A DNA stretch of 64,000 nt from an uncultured Actinomycetes bacterium (lineage in GTDB: Bacteria > Actinomycetota > Thermoleophilia > UBA2241). The notes below the pieces were generated by a model that did not search any database, had not been told where the DNA came from, and saw nothing but the letters and a program-made list of their open reading frames with translations. The stretch covers positions 234,894-298,893 of the forward strand of contig CAVRZA010000003.1 in NCBI GenBank assembly GCA_963725665.1, given 5' to 3'. Shown here piece after piece: positions 1-47,809 of this stretch (position 1 is the stretch's first letter; the number at the start of each line of letters is the position of its first letter). Made by a program: the position numbers and the translations under genes.

Positions 1-413
1 AGGAGGCCGCCGCTCAGGCCATGGCCGAGCTGGCCCGGCGCGCGAAGCGTCGAGGCCGGCGCGTGCGCTTGCTGGGGCCGGCGCGCAAGACGGCCGGTGC
101 GCGAGCGGAGGCCGCCGCAGACGCGGCGGAGTGGCCGGAGGGGGCGGAGGGTTCGGAGGAGACCGAGGGAGCGGCGATCGAGCACGAGCCAGAGCCGGAG
201 CCGGGCCGACGGGCGGAGGAGCCCGCGACGGAGTCGCAGGGCGCTGCGGCTGCCTCAGCCGACTCGGACGTCGCCGGCGGACCGCCGGGCGAGGCTGCTC
301 CTCCAGGACCGGCCAAGCCGGCGGTCGAACCGGGCACCGCTACGGCGCGGCGACGAGGCGGACGCGGCCGCTCTCGGCGGCGTCGGTCGAGCGGGGAGGC
401 GACTGAGTCCTGA
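1..413 (+). CDS. 3' end of a gene entering from the left, probably ribonuclease III with a low-complexity tail
   Basis: Frame reads EAAAQAMAEL, resembling the last helix of a dsRBD, then an acidic/Pro/Arg tail; the TGA overlaps the smc ATG; rnc-smc-ftsY is common synteny. Confidence 0.4.
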   Translation, partial: EAAAQAMAELARRAKRRGRRVRLLGPARKTAGARAEAAADAAEWPEGAEGSEETEGAAIEHEPEPEPGRRAEEPATESQGAAAASADSDVAGGPPGEAAPPGPAKPAVEPGTATARRRGGRGRSRRRRSSGEATES

Positions 414-3400
414 TGTACCTGCGCGCCGTGCGCCTCAAAGGCTTCAAGTCCTTTCCCCTGCAGACCGAGCTCGTCTTCGAGCCCGGGATCGCCGTGGTCA
501 TAGGTCCCAACGGCAGCGGCAAGAGCAACATCGCCGACGCGGTCATGTGGGTGCTCGGTGAGCAGAGCCCGACGACCGTCCGGGGCTCGTCGATGCAGGA
601 CATGATCTTCGCCGGGAGCGACGGCCGGCGAGCGAGCGGCAGCGCGGAGGTCGAGCTCACGTTCGACAACGGCGACGGCGCGCTGTCGCTGCCGACCCCC
701 GAGGTCAGCATCGGGCGGCGCGTGCGTCGCGACGGCGAGGCGACCTACTTCATCAACCGTTCGCCGTGTCGCCTGACCGACGTCGTCGAGCTGGTGGCCG
801 AGGTCGGCCTGGGCAAGGAGATGCACTCCATCGTCGGGCAGGGCAAGGTGGAGTCGCTGCTCGCTGCCAAGCCGGTCGACCGCCGCGCGCTGGTCGAGGA
901 GGCCGCCGGTCTGGGACGGTACAAGCGTCGGCGCGAGCGGGCCGAGCTCAAGCTGCGCGAGGTGGCGCGCAACTTGGAACGCGCGCGCGAGACCGAACGC
1001 GAGGCGGCCACCCGCCTCGCTCCCCTGCGCCGGCAGGCGAACGCCGCCGAGCTCTCGCGCGCCCTCGAGACCGAGCTCTCGGAGATCGAGGCCCGGCTGC
1101 TTGCCGGCGAGCTCGAAGAGGTCGCCGGGCGCGCCGACGCCGAGCGCGCCGCCCTCGACGAGGCTGCGGCCGGCAGGGCCCTGGTCGACGAGCGGCTGCG
1201 CGAGACGGCGTCACAACGGCGGGCTGACGACGAGCGTTTCGCGCGCGAGCTTGAGGAACGCGAGCGCCGCCGGCAGCGCGCCGTTCGCGCTCGCTACCTT
1301 GGAGACCGCATCGAGAGCTGCGTGCGTCTGACTGCTCAGCGCGGCGCGCTCCTCGAAGAGGTCGAGCGCGCCGCGCGCGGCGAGGTCGAGCGTCTGCGGG
1401 CCGAGCTGGCGCTGACCGCCGCTCGGCCGGCAAGCGACGACGACGATGCCGACGTCGAGGCCGGTCTGGCGGCGGCGCTCGCCGCCGCCGAGAGCGCCCA
1501 CGACGACGCCGCAAGGGAGCTGGCGACCGCACGGCGGGTGCAGGCGGAGGCGCGCGGCGAGCGTGACCACCTGACCGCCGAACGCGAGAACACCGCGGCT
1601 CGAGCGCAGCGGCTGCGCGAACGCGTGCGCGAGCTCGACGAGGCGGCCGCGCTCGCGTCGGCGCAGACTGAGAGCGCGCGCGACCAGGCGGCCGGGCGCC
1701 GGGCGGCGTTCATCGCCGGCGCGGCACGGAGGAGGCGGCGCGCGCCGCCGAGACGCGGGCCGAGGCGGCGGCGCGCGCCGCCGAGACGCGCGTGTCGGCC
1801 GCCAGGTCGGCACTGAGGGACGCTGAGGAGGATCTGCACGCTCTGACCGCCGAGAGGCGCGCGCTGGAGCTAGAGCTCGAGCACCTCACCGCCGGCCTGC
1901 GCGACCTCGACGAGGTCGGTACCGCCGTGCTCGAGGTGACCGGCGCCTTCCCGGGGGCCGCGGTCCTGGCGCAGGTGGTCGGCTGCGAGCGCGGCTACGA
2001 GAAGGCGCTGGCCGCCGCTCTGGCTCAGAGTCCGGGGGCCATCGCCGTGCCGCGCTCGCTCGACGGCTGGTCGCTACTGGCGGCGCTGCGCCAGGCGGGC
2101 GTCTCGCTTGCCCGTCTCCTGGTGCCCGTGAGGCGCGAGGAGGCGGCGGCCTTCCCCGGGGCGGCGCCGCTGCTCGACAAGGTCACCGTCGACGGCGAGG
2201 AGCTGGAGGAGTTCCTCGCCGGTGTCGTCGTGGTCGACGATCTGCGCGCGGTGCCCGATGGTTTCGACGGTCTCGCGGTGACGCTCGAGGGAGCCTACTA
2301 CCGACCACGTGCCGGTGAGCTCGGGTTGGCTGCGGGCGTGCCGGCGGCGGTGGTGCTCGAGCGGCGTTCGCGTGCGAGCGAGCTCGAGGCGAGGCTGGCT
2401 GCCACGCGCGCCAGCGAGCTGCGCGAGCAGCCGGTCGTGGCGCGCCTGCGTGATGATGGCGACGCTGCCGACGAGGCGCGGCGTGAGCTCGAGGGCGCGC
2501 TCGAGAAGGCGCGCGTCGAGGGACGCCGCGTGGCCGCCCAGCGGCGCGCGCTCGAGGACGAAGTGAACGCCCTCGAGGCCGGCGTGGGGCAGGCCGAACG
2601 GGCGCGAGACGCTTCGCTGGCCGAGGCCGACGCCGCTCGCGCCGACGTCGTGGCGCTCGAGGCGCGCGATGCGGAGCTCCTTATGAGGCTCGACACGCTT
2701 GCACCCGCCGTCGCCGCGGCCGAGTCGGCCGCGGCGGCCGCCGAGGAGCGTCATGAGGTCGCGCTGTCGGCCGTCACCACGGCCCGGGTCGAGCATGATT
2801 CTTACAAGGCACGCCAAAGCCAGGCCCAAGAGGAGCGGGCGCGGGCGCTCGCTCGTCAGGCGAGCGCTCGCGCCCGCCTCGAGGAGCTCGAACGCCGTCT
2901 GCGCGGCATCCCCGCTACGCGCGAGGCCTCGGGCGAGCTGGCCGCCGCGCTGGCCGCCGCCCGCGCCCGCGCCGCGGCGCTGGCCGAACGGCTCGAGTCG
3001 CAGGCCGGCGACCTCGACGCTCTGCCGCGGCGCGAGGAGTCGCGCCGCCTCGCCGAGCGCGAGGTCGAACTGCGACAGGAGGCGGAGGCGCTGGGCGAGC
3101 GGCGCGCGGCCGCTCAGGTGGAGCTGACGCACGTCGAGGAGCGGCGGGCCGAGCTCGCCCAGCGCCTCGACGCCATCGCCGAACGGCTCGAGCGGGCCTC
3201 GTTCGCGCCGCCGGCCGACGAGGACGAGGCGCGGGCGCTGCGCGCCCGCGCCGAACGCCTCGCGCGACGGCGCGACGGCCTCGGCCCCGTCAACCCGCTG
3301 GCCGAGGCGGAGTGCGCGGAGCTCGACGAGAGGGTGGGCTTCCTCCGCGAGCAGGTGCGCGACCTGGAGCGGTCGAGCGGCGAGCTGCAGGAGCTGATCG

Positions 3401-4020
3401 CCGAACTGACGGGCCGCATCGACGACGACTTCAGTGAGACGCTGACGGTGGTGGCGGACCAGTTCGAGAAGATGTGCGCCATCCTGTTCCCCGGCGGCCG
3501 CGGCAGGCTGCTGCTCGTCGAGGCCGAAGGCGACGAGCCCGGCGGGGTGGGCATCGAGGTCAAGCCGGCGCGCAAGCTGGGCAAGAAGCTGGGCCTGCTC
3601 TCGGGCGGCGAGCGCGCGCTGGTGGCGATCGCCTTCCTCATGGCCCTCATGCTGGCTCGCCCCAGCCCGTTCTACATCCTCGACGAGATCGAGGCGGCGC
3701 TCGACGACATCAATATCGGGCGTTTCGTCTCGCTGCTGCGGGAATACCGCGACCGCACGCAGTTCGTCATCGTCACCCATCAGAAGCGCACCATGGAGGC
3801 GGCTGATGTGCTCTACGGCGTGACGATGGGGCCCGACGGCGCCTCACACGTCGTGAGCGCGCGCATGGCGGAACAGGAGATCGAGGCCGAGGAGGCCGCC
3901 GGGCCCAGGGCGGCGCGAACGGCTGAGACGCAGGCTGAGCCGCCCGGCGTGGGGTCGGCGGCGGTAGCCATGGTGAGACTCGACGACGACGCCGGAGCGC
4001 CGGTGGACGAGGTGGACTAG
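413..4020 (+). CDS. smc: Chromosome segregation ATPase SMC (one frameshift near 1720-1790, probably a sequencing error)
   Basis: LKGFKSF and Walker A GPNGSGKSN in ORF 413..1816; coiled coils, LSGGE signature and ILDEIEAALD Walker B in ORF 1792..4020. Confidence 0.95.
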
Positions 4021-5025
4021 GTGGAGTGGCACGAAACGTTCAAGGGCGTCTCGGCTCAGGCCGAGGCGGCGGCGGCCGTCGAGGAGGAGCGCGAGCGCGC
4101 CGGTCTCTTCAGGCGCTTCCGCGACAACCTCGGCAAGGCCCGCGCCACGCTGCGCGACCACTTCCGCACCATCCTCTTCGACAGGCTCGACGAGGAAGTC
4201 TGGGAGCAGGTCGAGGAGGCGCTCATCTTCGCCGACGTGGGCGTCGACGCGACCGTGAAGATCGTCGCGCAGCTCGAGCAGCGCGCCGCGGAGGGCGCCA
4301 TCGAGTCGCGCGAGCAGCTCTTCGAGGCGCTGGCCGACGTGGTGGCGACGATGCTGCGTCCACCCGACCCCGATGACCAGCTCATCGACGTCAGCGGCGA
4401 CCCCTCGGTCATCCTGATCGTGGGCGTCAACGGTACGGGCAAGACGACGACCATCGGCAAGCTCGCCTACCGGCTCCATCAACTCGGAAAGTCGCCGCTC
4501 ATGGTGGCCGCCGACACCTTCCGCGCCGCGGCTGTCGAACAGTTGAGCGAGTGGGCCGACCGGGTCGGCTGCGAGATCGTCAAGCAGGCCCAGGGCAGCG
4601 ACCCGGCGGCGGTCGTCTACGACGGTATCGCCGCCGCCCGTTCGCGCGACCACGACGTGGTCATCGTCGATACCGCGGGGCGTCTGCACACGCAGGTCAA
4701 CCTCATGCGCGAGCTCGAGAAGGTGAGGCGGGTGGTCGAGAAGCAGGTCCCGTTGGGGCCGGTCGAGACGCTGCTCGTCATCGACGCGACGACGGGCCAG
4801 AACGGGCTGCGCCAGGCCGAGGTCTTCCGCGAGGCCGTCGATGTGACGGGGGTCGTGCTGACGAAGCTCGACGGCACGGCCAAGGGCGGCATCGTCGTGG
4901 CCATCCACGAGACGCTGGGCATCCCCATCAAGCTGATCGGCGTGGGGGAGAAGCTCGACGAATTGCGCCCCTTCGACGCCGAGCAGTACGCGCGCGCGGT
5001 CTTCGGCGGCGACGCCGCCGATTAG
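4021..5025 (+). CDS. ftsY: SRP receptor FtsY
   Basis: GVNGTGKTTT, DTFRAAA, DTAGRLHT, TKLDGTAKGG motifs. Confidence 0.97.
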   Translation: MEWHETFKGVSAQAEAAAAVEEERERAGLFRRFRDNLGKARATLRDHFRTILFDRLDEEVWEQVEEALIFADVGVDATVKIVAQLEQRAAEGAIESREQLFEALADVVATMLRPPDPDDQLIDVSGDPSVILIVGVNGTGKTTTIGKLAYRLHQLGKSPLMVAADTFRAAAVEQLSEWADRVGCEIVKQAQGSDPAAVVYDGIAAARSRDHDVVIVDTAGRLHTQVNLMRELEKVRRVVEKQVPLGPVETLLVIDATTGQNGLRQAEVFREAVDVTGVVLTKLDGTAKGGIVVAIHETLGIPIKLIGVGEKLDELRPFDAEQYARAVFGGDAAD

Positions 5026-5104
5026 AGCGCTAGAGGCGCCCGGCGGGCATACTACGATGAGTGGGTCCACCCGATGTGAACCTCCCAAGCGAGGATAGTG
5101 CGAG

Positions 5105-6430
5105 ATGTTCGAATCCTTGACCGAACGCCTACAGGGCGCCCTCGGCGAGCTGCGTGGGCACGGCAAGCTGAGCGCCCCAGACATCGACAGGGCGATGCGC
5201 GAGATCCGCCTGGCGCTGCTCGAGGCCGACGTGAACTTCAAGGTGGTGCGCGAGTTCGTCGCCCACGTGAAGGAGCGCGCCCTGGGGCAGGAGGTGATGG
5301 AGAGCCTCACGCCGGCCCAGCAGGTGGTCAAGATCGTCAACGAGGAGCTGACCGCTCTGATGGGCGCCGGCGACTCCAAGCTCGCCTTCAGCGGCCGGCC
5401 ACCGACGGTGATCCTCATGGCCGGCCTGCAGGGCTCGGGCAAGACGACGGCCTGCGCCAAGCTTGCGACCTTCCTCAAGAAGGACGGCAAGCGGCCGGTG
5501 CTCGTGGCCGCCGACGTCTATCGTCCGGCGGCCATCGACCAGCTCGTCGCCCTCGCCGCGCGTGCCGACGTGCCCGTCTACGCGCCCGGTGGCGATGTGG
5601 ACCCCGTCGACATCGCCAAACAGGGGGTCGAGTTCGCGCGCGAGAAGGGCGACGTGGCCATCATCGACACCGCTGGGCGACTGCACATCGACGAGGTGCT
5701 CATGGACGAGCTGGTGCGCATCCGCAAGGAGGTCAAGCCGCACAACATCCTCCTCGTCGTCGACGCCATGACCGGCCAGGACGCCGTCAACGCCGCCGAG
5801 CAGTTCAAGCAGCGCGTCGACATCGACGGCGTGGTCCTGACCAAGCTCGACGGCGACGCGCGCGGCGGCGCCGCCCTCAGCGTGCGCGCCGTCACCGGCA
5901 AGCCGATCAAGTTCGCCAGCACCGGGGAGAAGCTCGGCGACCTCGACTACTTCCATCCCGACCGCATGGCCTCGCGCATCTTGGGCATGGGCGACGTCCT
6001 CTCGCTCATCGAGCGCGCGCAGGAGAACATCGACGAGACGCAGGCGGCGCAGATGGAGGAGCGCCTGCGCAAGGCCGAGTTCACCTTCGATGACTTCCTC
6101 GTGCAGATGAAGCAGGTGCGCAAGATGGGATCCCTGTCGAGCATCATCGGCATGCTGCCCGGCATCCCTGGCATGAAGCAGCTCAAGAATGTGCAGGTCG
6201 ACGACAAACAGCTCGACCGCATCGAGGCTATGGTGCTCTCGATGACGCCTGACGAGCGCCGCCATCCGGAGATCATCGATGGCAGCCGACGCCAGCGCAT
6301 CGCGCGCGGCAGCGGCCACACGGTGCAGGACGTCAACGCTCTGCTCAAGCAGTTCCGCGAGATGCAGAAGATGGTCAAGCAGCTCGCCGGCGGCAAGATG
6401 CCGAAGCTCGGCCCGGGGATGCCGTTCTAG
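5105..6430 (+). CDS. ffh: Signal recognition particle protein Ffh
   Basis: ALLEADV, GLQGSGKTT, DTAGR, TKLDGDARGG, RILGMGD, Met-rich M domain. Confidence 0.98.
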   Translation: MFESLTERLQGALGELRGHGKLSAPDIDRAMREIRLALLEADVNFKVVREFVAHVKERALGQEVMESLTPAQQVVKIVNEELTALMGAGDSKLAFSGRPPTVILMAGLQGSGKTTACAKLATFLKKDGKRPVLVAADVYRPAAIDQLVALAARADVPVYAPGGDVDPVDIAKQGVEFAREKGDVAIIDTAGRLHIDEVLMDELVRIRKEVKPHNILLVVDAMTGQDAVNAAEQFKQRVDIDGVVLTKLDGDARGGAALSVRAVTGKPIKFASTGEKLGDLDYFHPDRMASRILGMGDVLSLIERAQENIDETQAAQMEERLRKAEFTFDDFLVQMKQVRKMGSLSSIIGMLPGIPGMKQLKNVQVDDKQLDRIEAMVLSMTPDERRHPEIIDGSRRQRIARGSGHTVQDVNALLKQFREMQKMVKQLAGGKMPKLGPGMPF

Positions 6431-6557
6431 GGGCACGGCGCCGGGTGGCTCGGCGTTGCGGGCGCGAGGCCGAGCGCATACTATGGTACGGTTCTCCATC
6501 GGCCCGGCCGAGAACTGGTTACGACTGTTGTAGCGGATCCCTAAAGAGGTGTGGTCA

Positions 6558-6803
6558 GTGGCAGTACGCATGAGGCTGAGCAGGGTCGGCAGCACCAAGA
6601 ACCCCATCTACCGCATCGTCATCGCCGACGCGCGCGCTCCGCGCGACGGCCGTTTCATCGCGACGATCGGTCACTACAACCCGCAGGTCGACCCGTCCTC
6701 CATCGACATCGACAAGGCCAAAGCGAGCGAGTGGTTGAAGAAGGGCGCCCAGCCGAGCAGGACCGTGAAACGGCTGCTGGCGCGCCAGGGCATCGACACC
6801 TAG
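6558..6803 (+). CDS. rpsP: 30S ribosomal protein S16
   Basis: MAVRMRLSRVGSTKNPIYRIVIADARAPRDGRFI; GAGGTG RBS before GTG 6558. Confidence 0.96.
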   Translation: MAVRMRLSRVGSTKNPIYRIVIADARAPRDGRFIATIGHYNPQVDPSSIDIDKAKASEWLKKGAQPSRTVKRLLARQGIDT

Positions 6804-6836
6804 CCGGCGCAGACACGTCGAGGCGGGAGGCGGTTG

Positions 6837-7070
6837 ATGTTGAAAGACCTGCTCGAATACCTGGCCAAGGCGCTCGTGGATAAGCCTGACGAGGTCCACG
6901 TCGAGGTGACGGAGACCGACACGACGATCGTGCTCGAGCTGACGGTCGCCAAGGACGACGTCGGCAAGGTCATCGGCAAGCAGGGGCGCATCGCGCGGGC
7001 GCTGCGCACGATCATCAAGGCGAGCGCGGTGCGCGACGGCAAGCGCGCCATCGTCGAGATCGTCGACTGA
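6837..7070 (+). CDS. khpA: KH-domain RNA-binding protein KhpA
   Basis: DVGKVIGKQGRIARALR; lies between rpsP and rimM. Confidence 0.93.
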   Translation: MLKDLLEYLAKALVDKPDEVHVEVTETDTTIVLELTVAKDDVGKVIGKQGRIARALRTIIKASAVRDGKRAIVEIVD

Positions 7071-7080
7071 CGCCCGAGCC

Positions 7081-7575
7081 ATGGCCGGTCTGTGGGCCTT
7101 CGCCACCGTGGGGCGAGCCCACGGCCTGCACGGTGAGATCTACCTCGACCTCCTGCCCGGCGGCCTCGACTACCTGACCAGGGGGTCGTCGTTCTCTATC
7201 GACGGGGGCGGCGGTCGGGTCACGCCCGTGCGCCTCGCGCGCACGGGCGGCACCGACCGCCGCCCTCTCGCGCGTCTCGACATCGCCGAGACGATCGACG
7301 AGGCGCGCGCCCTGCACGGCACGGTGCTCTACGCGCAGGCCGACGAGCTCGACGAAGGCGTCGATCACTTCCTGGTGAGCGAGCTCGTCGGCCTGCGCGT
7401 AGTCTCGGGCGAGACCGACCTGGGCGAGGTACGCGGGGTGCTCATGAACCCGGCTCACGACATCCTCGAGATCGGCGGCGAGGGCCGCGAGACGGTGCTC
7501 GTGCCGCTGGTGAAGGAGCTCGTCGAGGTCGACCGCGAGCGCGGCGTCGTGATCGTGAAAGAGGGTCTCCTGTGA
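7081..7575 (+). CDS. rimM: Ribosome maturation factor RimM
   Basis: VGRAHGLHGE N-terminus, PRC-barrel-like C-terminus (PAHDILEI...VLVPLV); synteny. Confidence 0.92.
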   Translation: MAGLWAFATVGRAHGLHGEIYLDLLPGGLDYLTRGSSFSIDGGGGRVTPVRLARTGGTDRRPLARLDIAETIDEARALHGTVLYAQADELDEGVDHFLVSELVGLRVVSGETDLGEVRGVLMNPAHDILEIGGEGRETVLVPLVKELVEVDRERGVVIVKEGLL

Positions 7576-8255
7576 AGTTCGACGTCTTCACGCTCTTCCC
7601 CGAGGCCTTCTCCTGGTTCCTGCAGCAGGTGCACGTACAGCGGGCACGCGAGCTGGGCGCCGAGTTCCGCCTCTGTAACTACCGCGACTACACGCCGCTG
7701 CGCCACGGGCAGGTCGACGACACCCCTTACGGGGGCGGCGCCGGCATGGTGTTGCGCATCGACGTCGTGGGCGCCGCTCTGGAGGCCGTCTACGGCATCG
7801 ACTGCGTGCAGGTGAAGGCGGACAGGCGCGTCGTCGAGCTGACGCCCCGCGGGCGCCAGCTCGACGACGCGCTCGCCGGCGAGTTGGCCCAGGGCGACCT
7901 GTGCCTCCTCTGCGGGCGCTACGAGGGTATCGACGAGCGCGTGCGCGAGCTGGTGAACGACCGCGTGTCGATCGGGCCGTACGTTCTCTCCGGCGGAGAG
8001 ATCGCCGCCGCGGCCCTCCTCGACGCGGTCGTGCGCAAGATCGAGGGCGCCGTATCCAACCCGGAGAGCGTGAGCTCCGACTCGTTCGCGCCCGGCCTGG
8101 CGGGAGCGCTGGAACACCCGCACTACACGCGGCCGGCGGAGTTCCACGGCTGGCGCGTGCCGGACGTTCTGCTCAGCGGTGACCATGCCGAGATCGAGCG
8201 CTGGCGGCGCGGCAACCTCGGCGGGCAGCCCCCAGACAAGAAGTCCGACCGCTGA
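7572..8255 (+). CDS. trmD: tRNA (guanine37-N1)-methyltransferase
   Basis: TLFPE, VDDTPYGGGAGM, CGRYEGIDER, VLSGGE, YTRP motifs. Confidence 0.97.
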   Translation: MKFDVFTLFPEAFSWFLQQVHVQRARELGAEFRLCNYRDYTPLRHGQVDDTPYGGGAGMVLRIDVVGAALEAVYGIDCVQVKADRRVVELTPRGRQLDDALAGELAQGDLCLLCGRYEGIDERVRELVNDRVSIGPYVLSGGEIAAAALLDAVVRKIEGAVSNPESVSSDSFAPGLAGALEHPHYTRPAEFHGWRVPDVLLSGDHAEIERWRRGNLGGQPPDKKSDR

Positions 8256-8436
8256 TTACGCAAGCGCGTCGCGCAGAGCACACGGTGCGGGTGGACGTTC
8301 GACGGATCGCACCTCGACCTCGCTCGTCCGCGTTTCGTCGCCGTGGCGGTCCGCGGTCTGTGTCGAGGCGGTGCCGGTCGGGTACCTTGTGGCCCAGACG
8401 AAGCGGCGTGAGAAGCGATGAGGAGGTGAGGTCTGC

Positions 8437-8649
8437 TTGGCGTTGACCGTGTATACGAAGGTAGGCTGCACAGCGTGCGAGGCGCTAGTGAGAGACTTGA
8501 AGGCGCGAGACGTGCCGTATCGGCTGGTCGATATCGACCGCTCGCCCGGCGGCGCGCAGGAACTCTCTCACCTGACCGGAGGCAGGCCGACAGTGCCCAC
8601 CGTAGTTGACGAGGACGGCGAAGTGCTGCTCGGTTTCGGCAACACCTGA
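8437..8649 (+). CDS. Small glutaredoxin-like protein (CxxC); terminal TGA might be Sec
   Basis: VYTKVGCTAC, TVP cis-Pro motif, C-terminal GFGNT; strong AGGAGGTGA RBS. Confidence 0.8.
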   Translation: MALTVYTKVGCTACEALVRDLKARDVPYRLVDIDRSPGGAQELSHLTGGRPTVPTVVDEDGEVLLGFGNT

Positions 8650-8787
8650 GGAGGAGACCGTGGCCTGCGTCGGCGGCTCTGGCTGGCCGAACGCAGGCGT
8701 CGGCGCGCGTGACGCGCTGGATCAACTCACCAAGCGGTGCGCCGCGCAGCGCCAGTGCATCGCTTCGCTGCTCAGGCGCGACCCTAG

Positions 8788-8818
8788 GGGTGGGCGGCAA
8801 GGGACGAGCCGCCCACCC
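8788..8818. terminator. Hairpin between convergent genes
   Basis: GGGTGGGCGGC / GCCGCCCACCC 11-bp inverted repeat. Confidence 0.6.
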
Positions 8819-8830
8819 TCTATGCGTCGG

Positions 8831-9614: not shown

Positions 9615-9900
9615 GACACGACCTCACTTCCTCTACGCGCAGTGCGCTGGTCTAGAACCTGTCCACATGATGGCGGGCGCGGCGGCTTCGGTGCGGCCGC
9701 CTTCACTCCCTCGACGCGATCGTTGAGCGTCGAAACGTGCCTGCATGGCGGCATTATAGTCCGCGGTGCGCGGCCGTCTACCTCGCTCCAAGATGCGGGC
9801 CGTGGAGCGCTCCGAGTCCAGGGGCCACGCACACCGTCCTCTGGCAGGGCGCAGCCCGACTCGCTAGACTCCCGCTGCCGCGGTAGGGCCCTCTGCCACC

Positions 9901-33179: not shown

Positions 33180-33189
33180 AGCGGCAGCC

Positions 33190-37896: not shown

Positions 37897-38090
37897 CGGT
37901 CTTCCGCCGGCGCGCCACCCGCCCACCGACCCGCCCGCCTAGCACGCATGGTCGCACGACCCCTGTGGTAGAATACCTGGCCGTTGCCCACCCACGACCC
38001 GGCGGTCCACAGGCCCGTGGCGGTGCCCCCTCGGGGATCCACCGGCCTCCGCCGGCAGACAGCGTCGAAACCGTTTCAAGGAGGCATCCC

Positions 38091-39703: not shown

Positions 39704-39820
39704 CAGCCGGCACACCGAAGAGCTGCAGCCGCCACACCCGGGCGACGGGGCTACGCGGCTGACGAGAAGGCAAGGCAACCGGGCTTCGGGCCCGTACGAC
39801 CACAGAAGCGAGTTGATGAC

Positions 39821-40423
39821 ATGGCAGATATCAGCGCGAAGACGGTTAAGGAGCTCCGCGAGAAGACCGGGGCCGGCATGATGGACTGCAAGCAGGCCCT
39901 CGCCGAGACAGGCGGCGACTTGGAGAAGGCGGTCGACTCTCTGCGCCAGAAGGGCCTTGCCGCGGCGCAGAAGAAGAGCTCCCGCGTGACCAAGGAAGGG
40001 GCGATCGACTCCTACATCCACGCCGGCGGCAAGATCGGCGTGCTGGTCGAGGTCGGCGTCGAGACCGACTTCGTCGCGCGCAGCGACCCGTTCAAGGAGT
40101 TCACGCACGACCTGGCCATGCAGGTGGCGGCGTCGAACCCGCTTTGGGTGGAGCGCGAAGAGGTGCCCGACGAGGTCATCGAGCGCGAGAAGGCGATCTA
40201 CCGCGAGCAGGCCAAAGGCAAGCCCGACAACGTCGTCGAGAAGATGATCGAGGGCAAGCTGAGCAAGTTCTACGCCGATGTCTGTCTCATGGAGCAGCCG
40301 TTCGTCAAGGATCCCGACCGCACCGTCGAGCAGTTGCGCACCAACCTCGTCGGCATCATCGGCGAGAATGTCGAGGTGCGCCGTTTCGTGCGCTTTCAGC
40401 TCGGCGATAGCTCCGAGGACTAA
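39821..40423 (+). CDS. tsf: Elongation factor Ts (short form)
   Basis: VKELREKTGAGMMDCK, ETDFVA. Confidence 0.97.
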   Translation: MADISAKTVKELREKTGAGMMDCKQALAETGGDLEKAVDSLRQKGLAAAQKKSSRVTKEGAIDSYIHAGGKIGVLVEVGVETDFVARSDPFKEFTHDLAMQVAASNPLWVEREEVPDEVIEREKAIYREQAKGKPDNVVEKMIEGKLSKFYADVCLMEQPFVKDPDRTVEQLRTNLVGIIGENVEVRRFVRFQLGDSSED

Positions 40424-40429
40424 GGCGTC

Positions 40430-41188
40430 GTGGAGGGGGGTCGAGACGGGGGCGAGGGAAGCGTCTTTCGGCGCGTCGTCCTCAAGCTGAGCGGACAGGC
40501 TCTCGCCGGCGAGGGCCACAAGGCCATCGATCCCGCTCGCACGCAGGAGATCGCGGCGCACGTCTCGCGGGCGCGCGAGATCGGCGTCGAGATCGCCATC
40601 ATCGTGGGCGGCGGCAACATCTTTCGCGGCGTCGCGGCGGCCACGCGAGGCATGGACCGCGCGACGGCCGACTACATCGGCATGATCGCCACGGTGCAGA
40701 ACGCCCTCGCGCTGCAGGACGCCCTCGAGCACGACGGCCTGGTCGTGCGTGTCATGAGCGCCATCGAGATCCGGTCGGTCTGCGAGCCCTACATACGACG
40801 CCGCGCGCTGCGCCATCTCGAACTGGGGAGAGTGGTGATCTTCGCCGCCGGCACGGGCAACCCGTACTTCTCGACCGACACGGCCGCGGCGCTGCGGGCG
40901 CTCGAGATCGACGCCCAGGCGATCCTCATGGCGAAGCGTGAGTACGACGGGGTCTACGACGACGACCCCGCGATCAACCCGCAGGCGAAGTTCATCCCTG
41001 AGATCACGCACCTCGAGGCCATCGAGCGCGGTCTGCGCGTCATGGATACCACCGCCCTCTCACTGTGCATGGACAACCACCTGCCCATCTACGTCTTCAA
41101 GATGACCGGCGACAACATCGCCAAGGTCCTCGCGGGGGAGCGCGTCGGCACGGTCGTGAGCGATCGTCCGGTGCGCGCCGGGACCTGA
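40430..41188 (+). CDS. pyrH: UMP kinase
   Basis: LKLSG, VGGGNIFRG, GTGNPYFSTD. Confidence 0.97.
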   Translation: MEGGRDGGEGSVFRRVVLKLSGQALAGEGHKAIDPARTQEIAAHVSRAREIGVEIAIIVGGGNIFRGVAAATRGMDRATADYIGMIATVQNALALQDALEHDGLVVRVMSAIEIRSVCEPYIRRRALRHLELGRVVIFAAGTGNPYFSTDTAAALRALEIDAQAILMAKREYDGVYDDDPAINPQAKFIPEITHLEAIERGLRVMDTTALSLCMDNHLPIYVFKMTGDNIAKVLAGERVGTVVSDRPVRAGT

Positions 41189-41216
41189 AGTCCGCCTTTC
41201 GACGGAAGGAGCCGAC

Positions 41217-41774
41217 GTGGAGAAAGAGCTGCTCGACGAGGCCAAGGCGCGCATGGCGAAGGCCGTGGAGGCGACGCGGACGGAGTTCAACACCGTGCGC
41301 AGCGGGCGCGCCTCGACCGGCCTGCTCGACCGCGTGCACGTCGACTACTACGGCGCCTCGACGCCGCTCAGACAACTGGCGAACATCGCCGTGCCCGAGG
41401 CTCGGCTGCTCACCATCACGCCCTACGACAAGGGCTCCATCCGCGCCATCGAGAAGGCCATCCTCGAGTCCGACCTGGGGCTCAACCCGAGCAACGACGG
41501 CACGATCATCCGCCTGCCGGTACCCACTCTGACCGAGGAGCGCCGCCGCGACCTCGTGAAGCTGGTCCATCGCCTGGCTGAGGACGGACGCGTCGCCGTA
41601 CGCAACATCCGCCGCGACTGCATGAAGGACCTGAAGGAGCTGCGCGAGGAAGGCATGGTGGGCGAGGACGCCGAACGCCGTGCCGAGGAGCAGTTGCAGA
41701 AGCTGACCGACCAGCACGTGCACGAGATCGACGAGCTCCTGAAGCACAAGGAGCAGGAGATCATGGAGGTCTAG
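41217..41774 (+). CDS. frr: Ribosome recycling factor
   Basis: RSGRA, DYYG, LTEERR, VRNIRRD. Confidence 0.97.
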   Translation: MEKELLDEAKARMAKAVEATRTEFNTVRSGRASTGLLDRVHVDYYGASTPLRQLANIAVPEARLLTITPYDKGSIRAIEKAILESDLGLNPSNDGTIIRLPVPTLTEERRRDLVKLVHRLAEDGRVAVRNIRRDCMKDLKELREEGMVGEDAERRAEEQLQKLTDQHVHEIDELLKHKEQEIMEV

Positions 41775-41857
41775 GCTCCGCGCGTCTCACGGCGCGGACC
41801 GCCGCTCGCCATGGTCACCCTCAATCACGGTCGCCGCGCCTGCGGCGCCCCCCTGCG

Positions 41858-42618
41858 ATGAGCCGCCTCTCGCTGTGGCGGCGTCTCCGCGGCGGTGCGC
41901 TCAAGCCGGCCGCCGAGCCCGCCGCGGGCGGCGCGGCATGCCGCTACCTCGCCATCATCATGGACGGCAACGGGCGCTGGGCGCAGCGCCGCCACGTGCC
42001 CGTGGCCGCAGGCCATCGGGCAGGCGCCAAGGCGCTGCGCCGCGTCGTCGAGCGTGCCATCGACCGCGACATCCTGGAGCTCACGGCGTTCACGTTCTCG
42101 ACCGAGAACTGGAACCGTTCGCCGGAGGAGGTCGCGGCCATCGTCGACCTCTTCCTGGAGCAGGTGGCCACCGAGGTGCCCGAGGTGCAAGCGCGCGGCG
42201 CGCGGGTGCGTTTCCTCGGCCGACGTGAGGGCCTCGAGGAGCGCCTGACGGCGGCCATGGACGCCGCCGAGGCGGCCAACCCGCGCGACGCGCGCATGAC
42301 GCTCTACATCGCCTTCAACTACGGCGCGCGGGCCGAGATCCTCGACGCGCTGCAGGCGCTGGTGTCAGAGGCCGCCGCGGGGGGTTCGCAGGTGAGCGAG
42401 GAGGCGCTGCGCGCGCACTTCTACGCCCCTGAGATGCACGATCCCGAGCTCCTCATAAGGACGAGCGGGGAGGAGAGGGTCTCCAACTTCCTCCTCTGGC
42501 AGATCGCCTACAGCGAGCTGTTGTTCGTCGAGAAGCTGTGGCCCGACTTCACGCCCGACGACCTCGACGAGGCCCTCGACGTCTACGCGCGCCGGGCGCG
42601 GCGCTTCGGAGGGCGCTG

Positions 42619-42619
<1 letters not shown>
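41858..42619 (+). CDS. uppS: Undecaprenyl diphosphate synthase
   Basis: IIMDGNGRWA, FSTENW, IRTSGEERVSNFLLWQ. Confidence 0.96.
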
Positions 42620-43404
<785 letters not shown>

Positions 43405-43437
43405 GCGCGGCGCCGGAGGTTGCGCGACGCGACATCC

Positions 43438-43552
43438 GAGAGAGCGCGGGATGTCTAAAAGAGTGTGTGATCACCGAAGAGTGTGCGATGGCTGTGAGTG
43501 CGGCGATGGCTAAGAGAGTGTGCGATGTCTGAGAGAGCAGATGATGGCTGAG
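43438..43552 (+). repeat. About 6 degenerate 17-20-bp direct repeats upstream of dxr
   Basis: Recurrent AGAGTGTGCGATG(G/T)CT-like units. Confidence 0.6.
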
Positions 43553-44791
43553 GCAGGAGGCCCGGTGGCGTCGGCTCCGCGATTCGTGCTCGTGCTCGGG
43601 TCGACCGGCTCCATCGGGCGCCAGGCCCTGGAGGTCATCTCGGCGACCCCAGGCTTGAGCGTCGCCGGCCTCGCGGCGCACGCCGACGTCGACGGCCTGC
43701 TGCAGCAGGCCGTCGACGCCGGCGTGCGCCTGCTCGCCCTGGGCGACGAGAGGCGCGCCGCAGAGGCACGCGAGCGGCTCGGGAGCCTGCCCGGCGGGCG
43801 GTCGCCACACAAGACCCTCAACGACGCGCGTGTCTTCGTCGGCGACGAGGGCGTCGAGGAGCTCATCGCAGTGGCTGCCGCCGAGGCGCAGGCCGGCGGC
43901 GCCGAGCTGATCGTGCTCAACGCCGTCGTCGGCGCCGCCGGCCTGCGCGCGACCATGGCGACCCTGCGCCGGGGCGTCACCCTGGCTCTGGCCAACAAGG
44001 AGAGCCTCGTCGCCGGCGGTCCGTTCGTGCTCGAAGCGGCCCGCCAGGACGGCGCGCGGATCCTCCCGGTCGACAGCGAGCACAGCGCCATCTTCCAGCT
44101 CCTCGAGGGCGAGCGGCCCCAGGCGATCGAGGAGATCCTCCTCACGGGCTCCGGCGGGCCGTTCCGCGGCCGCTCGCGCGCGGAGCTGCCCGACGTGACG
44201 GCCGACGACGCGCTACGCCACCCGACGTGGGTCATGGGTCCCAAGATCACCATCGACTCGGCCACGTTGATGAACAAGGGCCTCGAGGTGATCGAGGCGC
44301 ACTACCTCTTCGGCGTGCCCTATGAGCGCGTGACCGTCGTGATCCACCCGCAGTCGATCGTCCACTCGCTGGTGCGCTTCGCCGACGGAGCGCTGCTGGC
44401 GCACCTGGGTGTGCCCGACATGAGAGTGCCCATCGGCTACGCGCTGAGCTTCCCGGCGCGCGCCGACCTGCCCATGGTGGAGCGTCTCGACCTCTCGAAC
44501 CGTGCCCTCACCTTCGAGCCGCCCGACACGGAGACGTTCCGCTGCCTCGCGCTCGCCTACGCGGCCGGCAGCGCCGGGGGAGCCGCGCCCGCCGTGCTGA
44601 ACGCCGCCAACGAGGTGGCCGTGCACGCCTTCCTCGAAGGGAGGATCGGCTTCCTCGACATCGCTGCGCTGGTCGAGGAAGCCCTCGCCGCGCTCGGCGC
44701 CTCAGCGTGCGCCTCGATCGACGACATATACGCCGCCGACAGCGCCGCACGCGGGTTTGTGCTCAGGAAGCTAGGGCAAGCTTCCGAGTAG
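43541..44791 (+). CDS. dxr: 1-deoxy-D-xylulose 5-phosphate reductoisomerase
   Basis: LGSTGSIG, LANKES, PVDSEH, HPTWVMGPKIT, NAANE. Confidence 0.97.
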   Translation: MMAEAGGPVASAPRFVLVLGSTGSIGRQALEVISATPGLSVAGLAAHADVDGLLQQAVDAGVRLLALGDERRAAEARERLGSLPGGRSPHKTLNDARVFVGDEGVEELIAVAAAEAQAGGAELIVLNAVVGAAGLRATMATLRRGVTLALANKESLVAGGPFVLEAARQDGARILPVDSEHSAIFQLLEGERPQAIEEILLTGSGGPFRGRSRAELPDVTADDALRHPTWVMGPKITIDSATLMNKGLEVIEAHYLFGVPYERVTVVIHPQSIVHSLVRFADGALLAHLGVPDMRVPIGYALSFPARADLPMVERLDLSNRALTFEPPDTETFRCLALAYAAGSAGGAAPAVLNAANEVAVHAFLEGRIGFLDIAALVEEALAALGASACASIDDIYAADSAARGFVLRKLGQASE

Positions 44792-44792
44792 A

Positions 44793-46016
44793 ATGTCTGA
44801 AGTGGATGATTCGAATCCCATCTCCCCAGAAGAGAAACCGCGCCGCCGGCGTCCCGTGAGCGACCCGCGTCGCCGCGGCGACGGCGAGTCCGAAGAGCAG
44901 AGATCGCTGCTCGGCCGCTACTCCTGGCTCCTGCTCGTCGGCCTCGGGCTGGCGCTCGTCTTCTCGAGTTGGATGCTCGCCGTTGCCATCATCGGCCTCG
45001 CCTTCTTGATCCTCGTGCACGAGTTCGGCCACTTCCTCTTCGCCAAGTTGTTCGGCATGCGCGTGGAGAAGTTCTACATCGGCTTCCCGCCGGCGGCGGC
45101 CAAGAAGACCAGGGGTGAGACCGAGTACGGCATCGGCTGGATCCCTCTGGGCGGGTTCTGCAAGATCAGCGGCATGACGCCCGACGAGGAGGTGCCGCCC
45201 GACACCGGAGACCGCGTCTACTACAAGAAACCGGTGTGGCAGCGCAACCTGGCCATCTTCGGCGGACCGCTCATGAACTTCATCGCCGCGGCGGTGATCA
45301 TCTTCGTCTTCTTGGTCGTCGCCGGCGTGCCCAAAGCCTCGCTGACCATCGACTCGGTGATGCCCGGCACGCCGGCCGCAGGGATAGGGATGCAGCGCGG
45401 CGACACCCTGGTCGGGGCGAACGGCCAGCGCTGGACCGACTGGGAGCAGGCGACGGCGTTCCTCAAGGCGAACCCCAACAAGACGATCGAGCTCATCTAC
45501 AAGACGCCCAGCGGCGATCTCAAGACGGCGACCGTGCGGCTGGTCTCCAACCCCAACGACAAGCGCAGCGGCTACCTGGGTGTGCGCGTCGGCGAGACCA
45601 CCAGCCATCCCAACCCGGTCAGCGCCGCCAGGACCGCCGTTGTCACGACGGGTGACGTCATCTACCGCACCTTCGAGGGCTTCTACCTGCTCGTCACGGG
45701 CAAGATCAACCCGACCGGGCCCAACGGGGCAGTCGGCCCGGTCGGCATCGTCTCGGTCTCGCAGCAGGCCGTGCAGCAGCACTGGTACCCACTCTTCCTG
45801 GCCTTCATCAGCGTGAACCTGGGCATCATCAACCTGCTGCCCATCCTGCCCTTCGACGGCGGCCACATCTTCTTCAACACGCTGGAGCGCGTCCGCGGCG
45901 GTCGCCGCGTCGACAGGCGCGTCATCGAACGCATCGTGGCCGTGAGCGTGGCCGTGCTCATCACGCTCGCCATCTTCTTGACTTTCAACGACATCAGCCG
46001 GCTGATCAGCGGGTAG
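44793..46016 (+). CDS. rseP: RseP-like site-2 protease (M50, PDZ)
   Basis: HEFGH, IPLGGF, GPLMN, NLLPILPFDGG. Confidence 0.94.
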   Translation: MSEVDDSNPISPEEKPRRRRPVSDPRRRGDGESEEQRSLLGRYSWLLLVGLGLALVFSSWMLAVAIIGLAFLILVHEFGHFLFAKLFGMRVEKFYIGFPPAAAKKTRGETEYGIGWIPLGGFCKISGMTPDEEVPPDTGDRVYYKKPVWQRNLAIFGGPLMNFIAAAVIIFVFLVVAGVPKASLTIDSVMPGTPAAGIGMQRGDTLVGANGQRWTDWEQATAFLKANPNKTIELIYKTPSGDLKTATVRLVSNPNDKRSGYLGVRVGETTSHPNPVSAARTAVVTTGDVIYRTFEGFYLLVTGKINPTGPNGAVGPVGIVSVSQQAVQQHWYPLFLAFISVNLGIINLLPILPFDGGHIFFNTLERVRGGRRVDRRVIERIVAVSVAVLITLAIFLTFNDISRLISG

Positions 46017-46085
46017 CGCGGTCGCGTGACCGGTCGCGTGCCCGTCCGGCTTGCCGCGGGCGCTACCACGCCGGCTCGCCAGGGA

Positions 46086-46571
46086 CTACTTGAGGTGCAG
46101 GGAGGGGATGCGCTCGGCGAGCAGATCAAGAAGACCGGGGCGAAGCTCGCGGCGGTAGCGCTCAGGTGGGCGGGCCCGCAACTCCGCGACAATGAGCTCG
46201 GGGCGTGGCGGGACGACGATCGCGTCGAGCTGGCTGACCAACGGGGCGGGGCTTTGCGAGGTGGGGAGGAGGGGCGCGGCGAGCACTCGCCGTCGCAGCT
46301 CGTAGGCGAGGCCCAGAGCCCACACGACCCAGGGATCGCGGAGAGTGTCCTCGCCCAGCAGGCAGAGAGCGGCCGAGGCCCGGTTCATGCGCTGCGCGAG
46401 ACTGGAACGGATGTAGCATGCCCCGACGGTATCGAAGCGGTCGCTCACGAGCGCGACATCGACGCCCAAGCCGTAGCCCCTACGGAGATCGCTCACGAGC
46501 GACTGCGCAAGCGGCACGTCGCGCTCGACCATCGTCAGAAACAAGTGTCCTTTTGTCGGCGTGTCGGCCAC
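46086..46571 (-). CDS. Degenerate TIR-like (DUF1863-type) protein
   Basis: YIRSSLAQRMNRASAALCLLGEDTLRDPWVVWAL resembles the TIR-like IR.RI..S..IVLIG..T..S.WV.WEI pattern; GAGGGAG RBS. Confidence 0.5.
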   Translation of the reverse strand: MADTPTKGHLFLTMVERDVPLAQSLVSDLRRGYGLGVDVALVSDRFDTVGACYIRSSLAQRMNRASAALCLLGEDTLRDPWVVWALGLAYELRRRVLAAPLLPTSQSPAPLVSQLDAIVVPPRPELIVAELRARPPERYRRELRPGLLDLLAERIPSLHLK

Positions 46572-46744
46572 GGCTCCCTCGCCCTCCTCGGCTCGTGAGC
46601 ATGCGGTTGCCTTCCGAGGAGCATTCGCCCCTGGCGACGGCGACACCTTCCGGCCTCTCCCTCAACCTCTCCCTGAAGGCGAAAGTCGCGCGGGGAGACG
46701 GCATCCGTAGCGGGACGAGGCGCCATCGCGTATCCTCGGGGCCG

Positions 46745-47809
46745 ATGGAGCGCAAAAAGACACGGCAGATCCACGTCGGGCCTGTCGCCGTGGGCGGCGG
46801 CACGCCGGTCGTTGTCCAGTCGATGACCTCGACGCCGACGGGCGACGAGAGGGCCACGCTCGACCAGATCGTGCGTCTGGCCGCTGCGGGTTGCGAGGTC
46901 GTGCGCGTCAGCCTGCCCTCGGTCGACGAGCAGGAGGCGTTCGCGCACATCGTCGAGCACTCGCCGCTGCCGGTCATCGCTGACATCCACTTCGACTACC
47001 GCCTCGCCCTGATGGCGCTCGAGCGTGGCGCGGCCGGGGTGCGCGTCAACCCTGGCACCATCGGGCCGCAGCGCGTCGTGCGGCAGATCGTGGAGAAGGC
47101 CGCGCGGCACGGGGCCGCCGTGCGCATCGGCGTCAACTCGGGGTCGCTGCCGCGCGCGCTGCGTGAGCTGGCGCGCGCGCAGCCTGTCGAGGCCCTTGTG
47201 CGGGCAGCCGTCGGCTTCGCCGAGCGCTTCGATGAGTGGGGCTTTCGCGAGTTCAAGATCTCGGTGAAGTCGTCGAGCGTGCCCGACACCGTGGCCGCCT
47301 ACCGGTTGCTGAGCGAGCGCACCGACGCGCCGCTGCACATCGGCGTCACTGAGGCCGGCACCGTCTGGGGCGGCACGATCAAGAGTGCCGTCGGCATCGG
47401 CACGCTACTGGCCGAGGGCATCGGCGACACGTTGCGCGTGTCGCTCACCGGCGACCCCGTGGAGGAGGTGCGCGTCGCCTGGGCGATCCTCGCGGCGCTC
47501 GAGCTGCGGCGGCGAGGGCCCAACCTGATCTCGTGCCCGACCTGCGGTCGCACCGAGCTCGATCTGGCGGCCCTCGCCGCCGCGGTCGAGCGCCGCCTGC
47601 AGGCCTACGCGGCGCCCATCTCGGTCGCCGTCATGGGCTGTCGCGTGAACGGACCCGAGGAGGCGCGCCTGGCCGACTTCGGCATCGCCGGCGGCAGGGG
47701 CGAGGGGGTCGTCTTCGCCGGCGGGCGCAAGGTCGCCACAGTGTCCGAAGACAAGCTCGTCGAGGCGCTGTTCGCGGAGATCGACCGCGTGGTCGTCGAT
47801 CTCAGCTAG
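46745..47809 (+). CDS. ispG: HMBPP synthase
   Basis: VQSMT, IADIHFD, RIGVNSGS, HIGVTEAG, SCPTCGR, VMGCRVNGP. Confidence 0.97.
   Translation: MERKKTRQIHVGPVAVGGGTPVVVQSMTSTPTGDERATLDQIVRLAAAGCEVVRVSLPSVDEQEAFAHIVEHSPLPVIADIHFDYRLALMALERGAAGVRVNPGTIGPQRVVRQIVEKAARHGAAVRIGVNSGSLPRALRELARAQPVEALVRAAVGFAERFDEWGFREFKISVKSSSVPDTVAAYRLLSERTDAPLHIGVTEAGTVWGGTIKSAVGIGTLLAEGIGDTLRVSLTGDPVEEVRVAWAILAALELRRRGPNLISCPTCGRTELDLAALAAAVERRLQAYAAPISVAVMGCRVNGPEEARLADFGIAGGRGEGVVFAGGRKVATVSEDKLVEALFAEIDRVVVDLS

Follow-up and report, generated by a model that had tools for sequence, protein, structure and literature searches.

The uncultured Thermoleophilia-like actinobacterium analyzed here, a high-GC organism (genome G+C 0.68), appears to use UAG both as a pyrrolysine (Pyl) codon and as an ordinary stop codon. 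Such dual use of TAG had been proposed in a preliminary description of a 64-kb stretch of its DNA (the window) and was confirmed at the level of the genome, which encodes a Pyl system and the release factor RF1, carries 14 in-frame TAGs in methyltransferase genes and has TAG at 36–39% of its true stops. The same description contrasted a TAG-poor island in the window with the TAG-rich core genes on either side of it. This contrast probably reflects local scatter in stop choice on top of a weak adaptation trend, with UAG used in both senses, no codon avoidance and no footprint of Pyl.

Profile and tRNA searches of the genome revealed a complete Pyl system encoded beyond the window. Separate genes for the catalytic (PylSc) and N-terminal (PylSn) parts of the synthetase are found on contig C6, near 296–299 kb, with scores of 314.6 bits against TIGR02367 (cut-off 178) and 119.9 bits against TIGR03912 (cut-off 51), respectively. 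At a distance of 47 kb from the pylS genes, pylB, pylC and pylD neighbour each other and, together with tRNA-Pyl(CUA), occupy C6:343.7–347 kb; their products score 448.3, 338.7 and 211.6 bits against TIGR03910, TIGR03909 and TIGR03911, respectively, in each case above the cut-off. ARAGORN placed the tRNA-Pyl gene (cta) at C6:343702–343774 on the minus strand, immediately downstream of pylD. RF1 is also encoded, with a score above the cut-off. PylS was found in 27 of 31 genomes searched from the host's family, representing 11/11 genera. Judged by its genes, the Pyl system is nearly universal in this family, and the two uses of UAG have therefore presumably coexisted for a long time.

UAG is predicted to be the Pyl codon in 14 methylamine methyltransferase genes, namely five mttB, one mtmB and eight mtbB; the MttB family as a whole has about 30 genes in this genome. 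Each of these client genes contains one TAG at a conserved site, the flanking codons are conserved at the 14 sites, and the matches to the MtmB, MtbB and MttB families extend full-length across the TAG.

Outside these genes, TAG is a common stop. It ends 1276 of the 3503 genes (36.4%, vs 57.8% for TGA), as predicted by a simple in-house caller, not a standard one, in an assembly rich in frame errors, and 1165 of 3010 (38.7%) once genes with unsound ends are dropped. A low genome-wide TAG rate, named in the preliminary description as evidence that would refute it, does not occur. Full reassignment of TAG is not seen, as the coding potential after TAG (−0.22 per codon) equals that after TAA, compared to +0.40 inside genes; the sequence past TAG stops is non-coding-like. 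Neither is the archaeal style of TAG minimisation, to about 5% and far below Pyl-negative relatives, with the host at 36.4–38.7%. The TAG rates are 38.7, 37.6, 21.2, 35.9, 34.3, 28.9 and 46.9% in Pyl-positive genomes (the host listed first) and 27.2, 22.7, 22.8, 26.6 and 44.7% in five Pyl-negative relatives. Among these relatives, which were sampled at 180–400 kb each and are not phylogenetically independent, no depletion of TAG was found in the six Pyl-positive genomes (21–47%) relative to the five Pyl-negative ones (23–45%). In the ribosomal protein cluster of the host, 14 of the 31 genes (45%) end in TAG, nine in TGA and eight in TAA; orthologues of this cluster in one Pyl-negative relative have seven TAG, eight TGA and 16 TAA stops.

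There is a mild trend for TAG to be commoner in codon-adapted and conserved genes (41–45%). By codon-score quintile, TAG accounts for 31, 34, 37, 37 and 44% of stops (chi-square p=3e-5), and it ends 299 of 731 conserved genes vs 977 of 2772 others (p=0.005). The preliminary description had also named, as counter-evidence, a low TAG rate shared by accessory genes in general; this was seen only in a weak form, poorly adapted genes having 31% TAG, not 18%.

In the window, the left core flank (413–8255, plus strand; gene calls and Pfam) consists of smc (413–4020, ending in TAG and interrupted by a frame change at about 1800), ftsY, ffh and rpsP, all with TAG stops, followed by genes for a KH protein, RimM and TrmD, all with TGA. 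The right core flank (30293–47809, plus strand; Pfam) runs from rplS to ispG and includes 12 TAG-ended genes (rplS, lepB1, lepB2, yraN, dprA, the gene for a whiG-like sigma factor, rpsB, frr, cdsA, dxr, rseP and ispG), five genes ending in TGA (rnhB, comM, an xerC-like gene, pyrH and uppS) and tsf, which ends in TAA. The earlier counts were reproduced, with TAG at the ends of 16 of 25 flanking core genes (an identical list) vs four of 22 island genes. The figure of 16 requires that lepB2 and rpsB be read across a frame change, to TAGs at 31933–31935 and 39701–39703; with an additional minus-strand gene (46086–46571) that also ends in TAG, the flank count becomes 17/26. The earlier heading, with TAG as the dominant true stop in housekeeping genes, goes too far, as genome-wide the dominant stop is TGA, not TAG. 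Conservation of TAG at the flank genes was not seen among five Thermoleophilia/Solirubrobacterales relatives, in which the stops vary; ffh alone has TAG in all five.

The island (8256–30292) is a 22-kb insertion of 22 genes between trmD and rplS, with 16 TGA, four TAG and two TAA stops. In its left end (8256–11063), the Pfam matches are limited to a short glutaredoxin-like segment and a 4Fe-4S fragment. The monomethylamine methyltransferase gene mtmB (11064–12473, plus strand) contains a predicted Pyl TAG at 11688–11690 and ends in TAA; its two halves align to positions 1–195 and 216–449 of Pfam MtmB, and a single match of 630.7 bits spans the TAG. It is followed on the same strand by genes for a corrinoid protein (12587–13231, TGA; Pfam B12-binding), an ammonium transporter (13364–14590, TGA; Pfam Ammonium_transp) and a protein kinase (14651–15445, TAG at 15443–15445; Pfam Pkinase). 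Two cNMP/CBS/DUF294 genes, identified by Pfam and with ends taken from frame analysis, are located at 20407 to about 22130 (plus strand, frame change near 22005, TGA) and 22341–24165 (plus strand, several frames, TAG at 24163–24165). The dimethylamine methyltransferase gene mtbB (24486–25886, plus strand), with a predicted Pyl TAG at 25545–25547 and a TGA stop, matches positions 4–462 of the 463 of Pfam Dimeth_Pyl (E=1e-199) when read through the TAG. Next to it are genes for a second corrinoid protein (25927–26586) and an amino-acid-type permease (27001–28608), both on the plus strand, assigned by Pfam and ending in TGA. Genes for a universal stress protein (USP2, 28759–29199) and a pterin-binding methyltransferase (29332–30135), likewise assigned by Pfam, lie on the minus strand and end in TAG. 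The kinase, second DUF294/CBS copy, USP2 and pterin methyltransferase genes are the four TAG-ended genes of the island.

The difference between 4/22 and 16/25 is significant by Fisher's test (p=0.0027), and so are the deviations of the flank alone (p=0.009) and the island alone (p=0.035) from the genome TAG rate of 0.387. Equally extreme blocks exist in other parts of the genome: among 2772 windows spanning 25 genes, 51 have at least 16 TAGs, and among 2796 spanning 22 genes, 152 have four or fewer. An equal contrast in the same flank-island-flank layout occurs at 0.6% of 3059 genome positions, so that pure scatter is not a comfortable explanation. A local contrast in stop codons, seen in a single window, says little in favour of selection. 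Overlap of stop with start codons was considered as a cause and rejected: it involves 24% of TGA vs 4% of TAG stops genome-wide, yet only one junction in the island.

If genes transcribed together with Pyl enzymes avoided TAG when charged tRNA-Pyl is abundant, the island would have been purged of this stop, in agreement with its 4/22 vs 16/25 in the flanks. The well-adapted methylamine genes of the island run in that direction, proposed in the preliminary description and opposite to our preferred reading: only one of the 11, encoding the pterin methyltransferase, ends in TAG and the rest end in TGA or TAA. The pattern is not replicated elsewhere in the genome, though, and the proposed avoidance of TAG by genes co-expressed with the Pyl enzymes was not borne out. 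Three of the five pyl protein genes (pylSc, pylSn and pylD) end in TAG themselves, as do four of 13 Pyl methyltransferase genes (TGA 8, TAA 1), four of 12 corrinoid partner genes and 18 of 53 methylotrophy genes (p=0.78 vs the genome rate). In the neighbourhoods of the other Pyl genes, TAG ends 23/58, 37/97 and 53/145 genes (36–40%), compared to 38.7% for all remaining genes, and ribosomal protein genes, which are translated in every condition, reach 45%. Also, TAG is the stop of pylSc in 16 of the 27 PylS-containing genomes of the family. Purging of the island by selection is therefore very unlikely.

For context gating of Pyl insertion, the other device suggested earlier, no clear signal was found. 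The base after TAG is G at all 14 Pyl TAGs, but also at 35% of TAG stops. The 90 nt downstream of Pyl TAGs have a folding energy of −38.5 kcal/mol vs −35.4 kcal/mol in coding controls (p=0.08). Among genome stops, backup stops are not enriched behind TAG: whether a gene ends in TAG, TGA or TAA, the next stop comes at a median of 44 codons, and 7.6% of TAG vs 9.6% of TGA have another one within five codons.

The 16 genomes in which pylSc has a TAG stop are spread over nine of the 11 genera. A gene neighbouring pylSc has retained its TGA in 13/16 relatives. Stops thus change slowly, and 16/27 amounts to about a single ancestral event, for which reason the TAG of pylSc was rejected as evidence of selection. 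One could imagine that this stop senses suppressor strength, in that a rise in charged tRNA-Pyl would append a read-through tail, weaken or destabilize the enzyme and so keep read-through of UAG bearable. The tail past the pylSc stop would comprise 38 residues in the host and from 1 to 336 in its relatives. We regard such a loop, reminiscent of the way RF2 regulates itself, as quite improbable; if real, it would explain the long retention of Pyl without purging of TAG.

Alternatively, the 22-kb block might have come from a low-TAG genome and still fall short of host usage. The insertion is unique to the host among the 31 family genomes searched, the trmD–rplS gap being less than 1 kb in 30/30 others. 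The G+C content of the block is 0.63–0.67, compared to 0.68 for the genome and 0.69–0.75 for the left flank; about half of its genes score below the 21st codon-score percentile, and Pyl-type MtmB has a scattered distribution among family members (3/31 genomes, host included). On the other hand, the methylamine genes of the block are host-like (70th to 98th codon-score percentile), the closest Pyl-type MtmB found belongs to another family member and is 73% identical, a value like that for TrmD (66–79%), and the pterin methyltransferase gene is a 99.3% identical copy (blastn) of a gene elsewhere in the host genome (C6:463963–464790). Sampled family members have 21–39% TAG, and a donor from within the family would therefore explain little. 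Donor usage thus appears an unlikely source of the low TAG count.

Assembly errors also deserve attention. Single-base errors of a long-read assembly could break genes into pieces that end off-frame at TGA, making the island look TAG-poor, and broken genes do inflate TGA counts in high-GC assemblies with frame errors: TGA makes up 80–87% of off-frame stops and 72% of the stops of genes with unsound ends. Frame changes were seen in smc, lepB2, rpsB and both DUF294 genes. One base at 31683 is missing from related-strain contigs, which are short, 93–99% identical and thin in cover at the rpsB frame change. Without its six TGA genes with unsound ends, the island has 4/16 TAG stops (p=0.19 vs the genome rate). 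Still, the count of 4/22 already takes each broken gene once, the sole island end that could be repaired by homology remains TGA, and the TAG excess of the flanks is left untouched. It is extremely unlikely that the contrast is an artefact of this kind.

The reading we prefer, scatter in stop choice on a weak adaptation trend, runs as follows. UAG is an ordinary stop, read by RF1, in 36–39% of genes, and the lineage has not purged TAG stops, even from ribosomal protein genes, pyl genes or the ends of Pyl enzymes. Well-adapted, conserved and highly expressed genes use TGA less often, and TAG or TAA more often, than others do. Poorly adapted or frame-broken ORFs end mostly in TGA. Charged tRNA-Pyl may be scarce or induced only by methylamines, a mode of coping likely to be that of other Pyl bacteria; Pyl-tRNA and RF1 would then compete for UAG, and a degree of read-through would be tolerated. 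A search for RNA runs containing this sequence listed none.

In Pyl bacteria, the TAG share is roughly 20%, which is exceeded by the 36–39% of the host. These bacteria are described as relying on regulation, not codon avoidance (Prat et al. 2012, as cited in PMC3941956). The host matches this pattern, now in a Thermoleophilia-like family, with conditional expression presumed by analogy. It shares with Acetohalobium arabaticum and Desulfitobacterium hafniense (Prat et al. 2012, as cited in PMC3941956 and PMC12626013) the split pylSc/pylSn, pylBCD, tRNA-Pyl(CUA), Pyl in methylamine methyltransferases and TAG kept as a common stop; unlike them, it belongs to Actinomycetota, has 68% G+C and carries pylS 47 kb away from pylBCD–pylT. 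A survey lists just two Actinobacteria among 81 bacterial genomes with PylRS (PMC9630628), and no paper on Pyl in Thermoleophilia or Actinomycetota was found in the literature, judged by titles and the openings of abstracts. The host has eight mtbB copies, whereas this gene is said to be almost confined to Methanosarcinales (PMC3941956).

With Pyl methanogens (Methanosarcinaceae, Methanomethylophilaceae), the host has in common the Pyl enzymes, the ambiguity of UAG and the lack of a known insertion element. UAG in methanogens is settled by competition between Pyl-tRNA and the release factor (PMC13663744). In Pyl-positive archaea, TAG makes up a median of 5% of stops (range 1–27%; PMC12626013); in contrast to these archaea, the host has 36–39% TAG, with no drop relative to Pyl-negative relatives. 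The archaeal code in which all TAGs specify Pyl (Kivenson et al. 2025, as cited in PMC13695967) shares the Pyl machinery and TAG inside genes, but in the host TAG is a real stop and RF1 is present. Pyl use in bacteria is not predictable from TAG stop frequency. Combining heavy predicted Pyl use with TAG at the ends of over a third of its genes, the host is an extreme example of codon ambiguity in nature, and its lineage is suited to testing whether the ambiguity of UAG is handled by regulation, competition with RF1 or tolerated read-through.

TAG has two uses in this genome (3.73 Mb, 12 contigs, 68% G+C), standing in frame at 14 pyrrolysine (Pyl) codons and closing 36.4–38.7% of real gene ends, which bears out the dual use proposed in the preliminary description. 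Genes were called not with a standard gene finder but with a purpose-written caller that scores codon usage, for which long ORFs of typical composition served as the training set. When the 14 Pyl codons are set aside, the 3503 calls end in TAG in 36.4%, TGA in 57.8% and TAA in 5.8% of cases; the respective shares are 38.7%, 55.5% and 5.8% for the 3010 genes whose ends were judged sound by a gene-end filter, and 22.5%, 71.6% and 5.9% for the 493 with unsound ends. After an artificial frame shift the first stop reached is TGA in 80–87% of cases, and broken genes therefore inflate the TGA count. The coding score per codon is -0.22 after TAG stops, equal to that after TAA, as opposed to +0.40 inside genes. 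Since the sequence beyond them is non-coding-like, TAG stops are genuine gene ends.

The window contains no Pyl machinery, which is encoded on another contig, C6. The genes pylSc (C6:296212–297084) and pylSn (C6:298890–299234) are on the minus strand, and pylB, pylC, pylD and tRNA-Pyl(CUA) occupy C6:343702–347028, all of them scoring above curated cut-offs. These genes form two separate groups: one holds pylSc, genes for a corrinoid protein and a 292-aa protein, and pylSn; the other, the pylB-pylC-pylD-pylT cluster, is 47 kb off and has pylT placed after pylD, not beside pylS. RF1 was found in the genome. Given a tRNA-Sec gene on contig C11 (C11:550041–550138), the genetic code of this organism may be expanded with both selenocysteine and pyrrolysine. 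The 14 in-frame TAGs are distributed among mttB (five), mtmB (one) and mtbB (eight, one copy being frame-broken); three of the eight mtbB copies lie within 12 kb (C2:493945–505331), and other contigs carry copies as well. About 25 homologues of MttB or MtmB are TAG-free, and among about 30 MttB-family genes just five have TAG at the Pyl site. In a further MttB-family match (C1:36714–38156) a TAG that may be a Pyl codon precedes the called start, close to the N-terminus and off the usual Pyl site. The repertoire of genes for methylamines and methyl compounds is unusually large for a bacterium.

Genes of the window (C3:234894–298893) were named by Pfam. The left flank comprises smc, ftsY, ffh, rpsP, a KH protein gene, rimM and trmD; the right flank runs through rplS, two lepB genes, rnhB, yraN, comM, dprA, a tyrosine recombinase and a WhiG/FliA-type sigma factor to rpsB, tsf, pyrH, frr, uppS, cdsA, dxr, rseP and ispG. 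The 22-kb island between them, from the end of trmD (8255) to the start of rplS (30293), encodes mtmB and mtbB, each with a single in-frame TAG (11688–11690 and 25545–25547, respectively), two corrinoid proteins, an ammonium transporter, two permeases, a kinase, two universal stress proteins, two cNMP/CBS/DUF294 proteins and a pterin-binding methyltransferase; it also holds several small ORFs that match no family. A small, lone opposite-strand gene with a weak TIR-like match and a TAG stop (46086–46571, minus strand) lies between rseP and ispG. Beyond it is a minus-strand run of TGA-ended ORFs (47926–52236) with InlB B-repeat and Ig-like domains; their starts are near-identical, several are exactly 81 aa long, and together they are probably a single large repeat-protein gene split by frame errors.

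The island is a real insertion, because trmD and rplS stand on a single contig less than 1 kb apart in 30/30 other genomes of the family and are 22,040 bases apart here. The methyltransferase gene at its right edge (29330–30157) has an 828-bp, 99.3% identical copy at C6:463963–464790. Searches with the island query found Pyl-type MtmB (73% identity) in no more than two of the family's other genomes. The best named relatives of TrmD, all from MAGs, are from uncultured Actinomycetes (74% identity), Thermoleophilia (69%) and Solirubrobacterales (58–59%).

The stop counts of the preliminary description were exact: TAG ends 16 of the 25 flank genes versus 4 of the 22 island genes (Fisher, p=0.0027). 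In a whole-genome scan with the identical flank-island-flank layout, the observed difference was reached at 0.6% of 3059 positions, and TAG-rich and TAG-poor blocks of comparable size occur at several places elsewhere in the genome. Two of the flank's 16 TAG ends depend on reading across a frame change: in the second lepB (31272–31935) the conserved S26 C-terminal part is in a different frame, with TAG at 31933–31935, and in rpsB (38106–39703) the tail, a run of RTDRPPA-like repeats, continues in a different frame to TAG at 39701–39703. Frame changes are also seen in smc (413–4020) and both DUF294/CBS genes (20407–24165). Contigs of related strains have one base fewer at 31683, the lepB frame-change point. 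The lepB and rpsB changes most likely are assembly errors, and the whole set has the look of single-base errors.

TAG had also been described as the dominant stop of housekeeping genes. The direction of this claim holds: the TAG share rises with codon adaptation (31, 34, 37, 37 and 44% from the lowest to the highest quintile; chi-square p=3e-5), is higher in genes well matched in sampled relatives (299/731 vs 977/2772 for the remainder, p=0.005) and is high in the main ribosomal protein cluster (TAG 14, TGA 9, TAA 8 in 31 genes from a tuf-sized gene to rplQ, with 10/10 tested members fitting the expected Pfam families and the remaining names taken from gene order). Dominance does not hold, as TAG is common genome-wide but outnumbered by TGA; in these sets it reaches 41–45% compared to 64% in the window flank. 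The housekeeping pattern is that TGA is rarer in highly expressed genes. The island-flank contrast is best read as local scatter combined with a weak trend linked to expression and adaptation and some inflation of TGA by gene fragments. It does not reflect Pyl decoding.

If genes co-expressed with the Pyl enzymes avoided TAG, as had been suggested, other Pyl loci of the genome should do the same, but they show no such avoidance. TAG terminates pylSc, pylSn and pylD, with TGA in pylB and pylC; of the Pyl methyltransferase genes, the 13 whose end was called have TGA (8), TAG (4) or TAA (1), and corrinoid protein genes have TGA (8) or TAG (4). The whole methylotrophy set has TAG in 18/53 (p=0.78 vs the genome rate), a further locus being unassigned. 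Among sound-ended neighbours of Pyl genes outside the window, TAG accounts for 23/58 within three genes, 37/97 within five and 53/145 within eight, compared to 38.7–38.8% elsewhere; for neighbours of TAG-free homologues the share is 35–36%. Across 27 family genomes pylSc ends in TAG (16), TGA (7) or TAA (4); even at the divergence seen within the family (PylSc identity 58–66%), the synthetase gene has thus not lost its TAG stops. A gene adjoining pylSc keeps TGA in 13/16, so stop identity is slow to change and the pylSc TAG does not count as evidence of selection. In one genus, every sampled member has TGA or TAA at the end of pylSc.

PylS was found in 21/24 other genomes of the same family and in 1/16 from other families of the class; a second draw gave 27/31 family genomes with PylS, in 11/11 genera. 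Stop usage was compared with eleven relatives, which are not independent of one another, in small samples (180–400 kb each) processed with the same caller and end filter, the studied genome being represented by its whole-genome, sound-ended figure. TAG shares in Pyl-positive genomes were 38.7% here, 37.6% (G014), 21.2% (G021), 35.9% (G024), 34.3% (G003), 28.9% (G012) and 46.9% (G032), and in Pyl-negative genomes 27.2% (G018), 22.7% (G009), 22.8% (G030), 26.6% (G036) and 44.7% (G037); over these twelve genomes, with relatives sampled in this way, TAG is not depleted in those with Pyl. In the orthologous ribosomal cluster of Pyl-negative G018, TAG ends 7 genes, TGA 8 and TAA 16, versus 14 with TAG in the studied genome. 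G018, a 1.66-Mb member of the same family with 66% G+C, uses TAA for 27% of its stops vs 1–8% in its relatives.

It had been proposed, too, that Pyl insertion is conditional or gated by context. G follows and TTG, GCG or TAC precedes 14/14 Pyl TAGs, a context that reflects a conserved protein motif; G also follows 35% of TAG stops. The 90 nt downstream of Pyl TAGs fold at -38.5 kcal/mol vs -35.4 for internal coding controls (p=0.08), and backup stops show no excess near TAG stops. In flanking codons, 90-nt downstream fold and backup stops, no signal separating Pyl TAGs from stop TAGs was found.

Among the papers found, judged by titles and the opening parts of abstracts, none dealt with pyrrolysine in Thermoleophilia or Actinomycetota; supplementary tables of the papers cited here may list stop usage of Pyl bacteria. 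The excerpts consulted report 81 bacterial genomes with PylRS, including two Actinobacteria (PMC9630628), and describe Pyl-tRNA and release factor as competitors for UAG, with methylamines raising pyl expression and tRNA charging (PMC13663744). Bacteria are described as coping with Pyl through regulation and not through avoidance of the codon (PMC3941956). For archaea, an excerpt gives a median TAG stop share of 5% (range 1–27%) in Pyl-positive vs 22% in Pyl-negative genomes (PMC12626013). The dual use of TAG in the studied genome is real and striking in degree, and it follows a pattern already described for Pyl bacteria.
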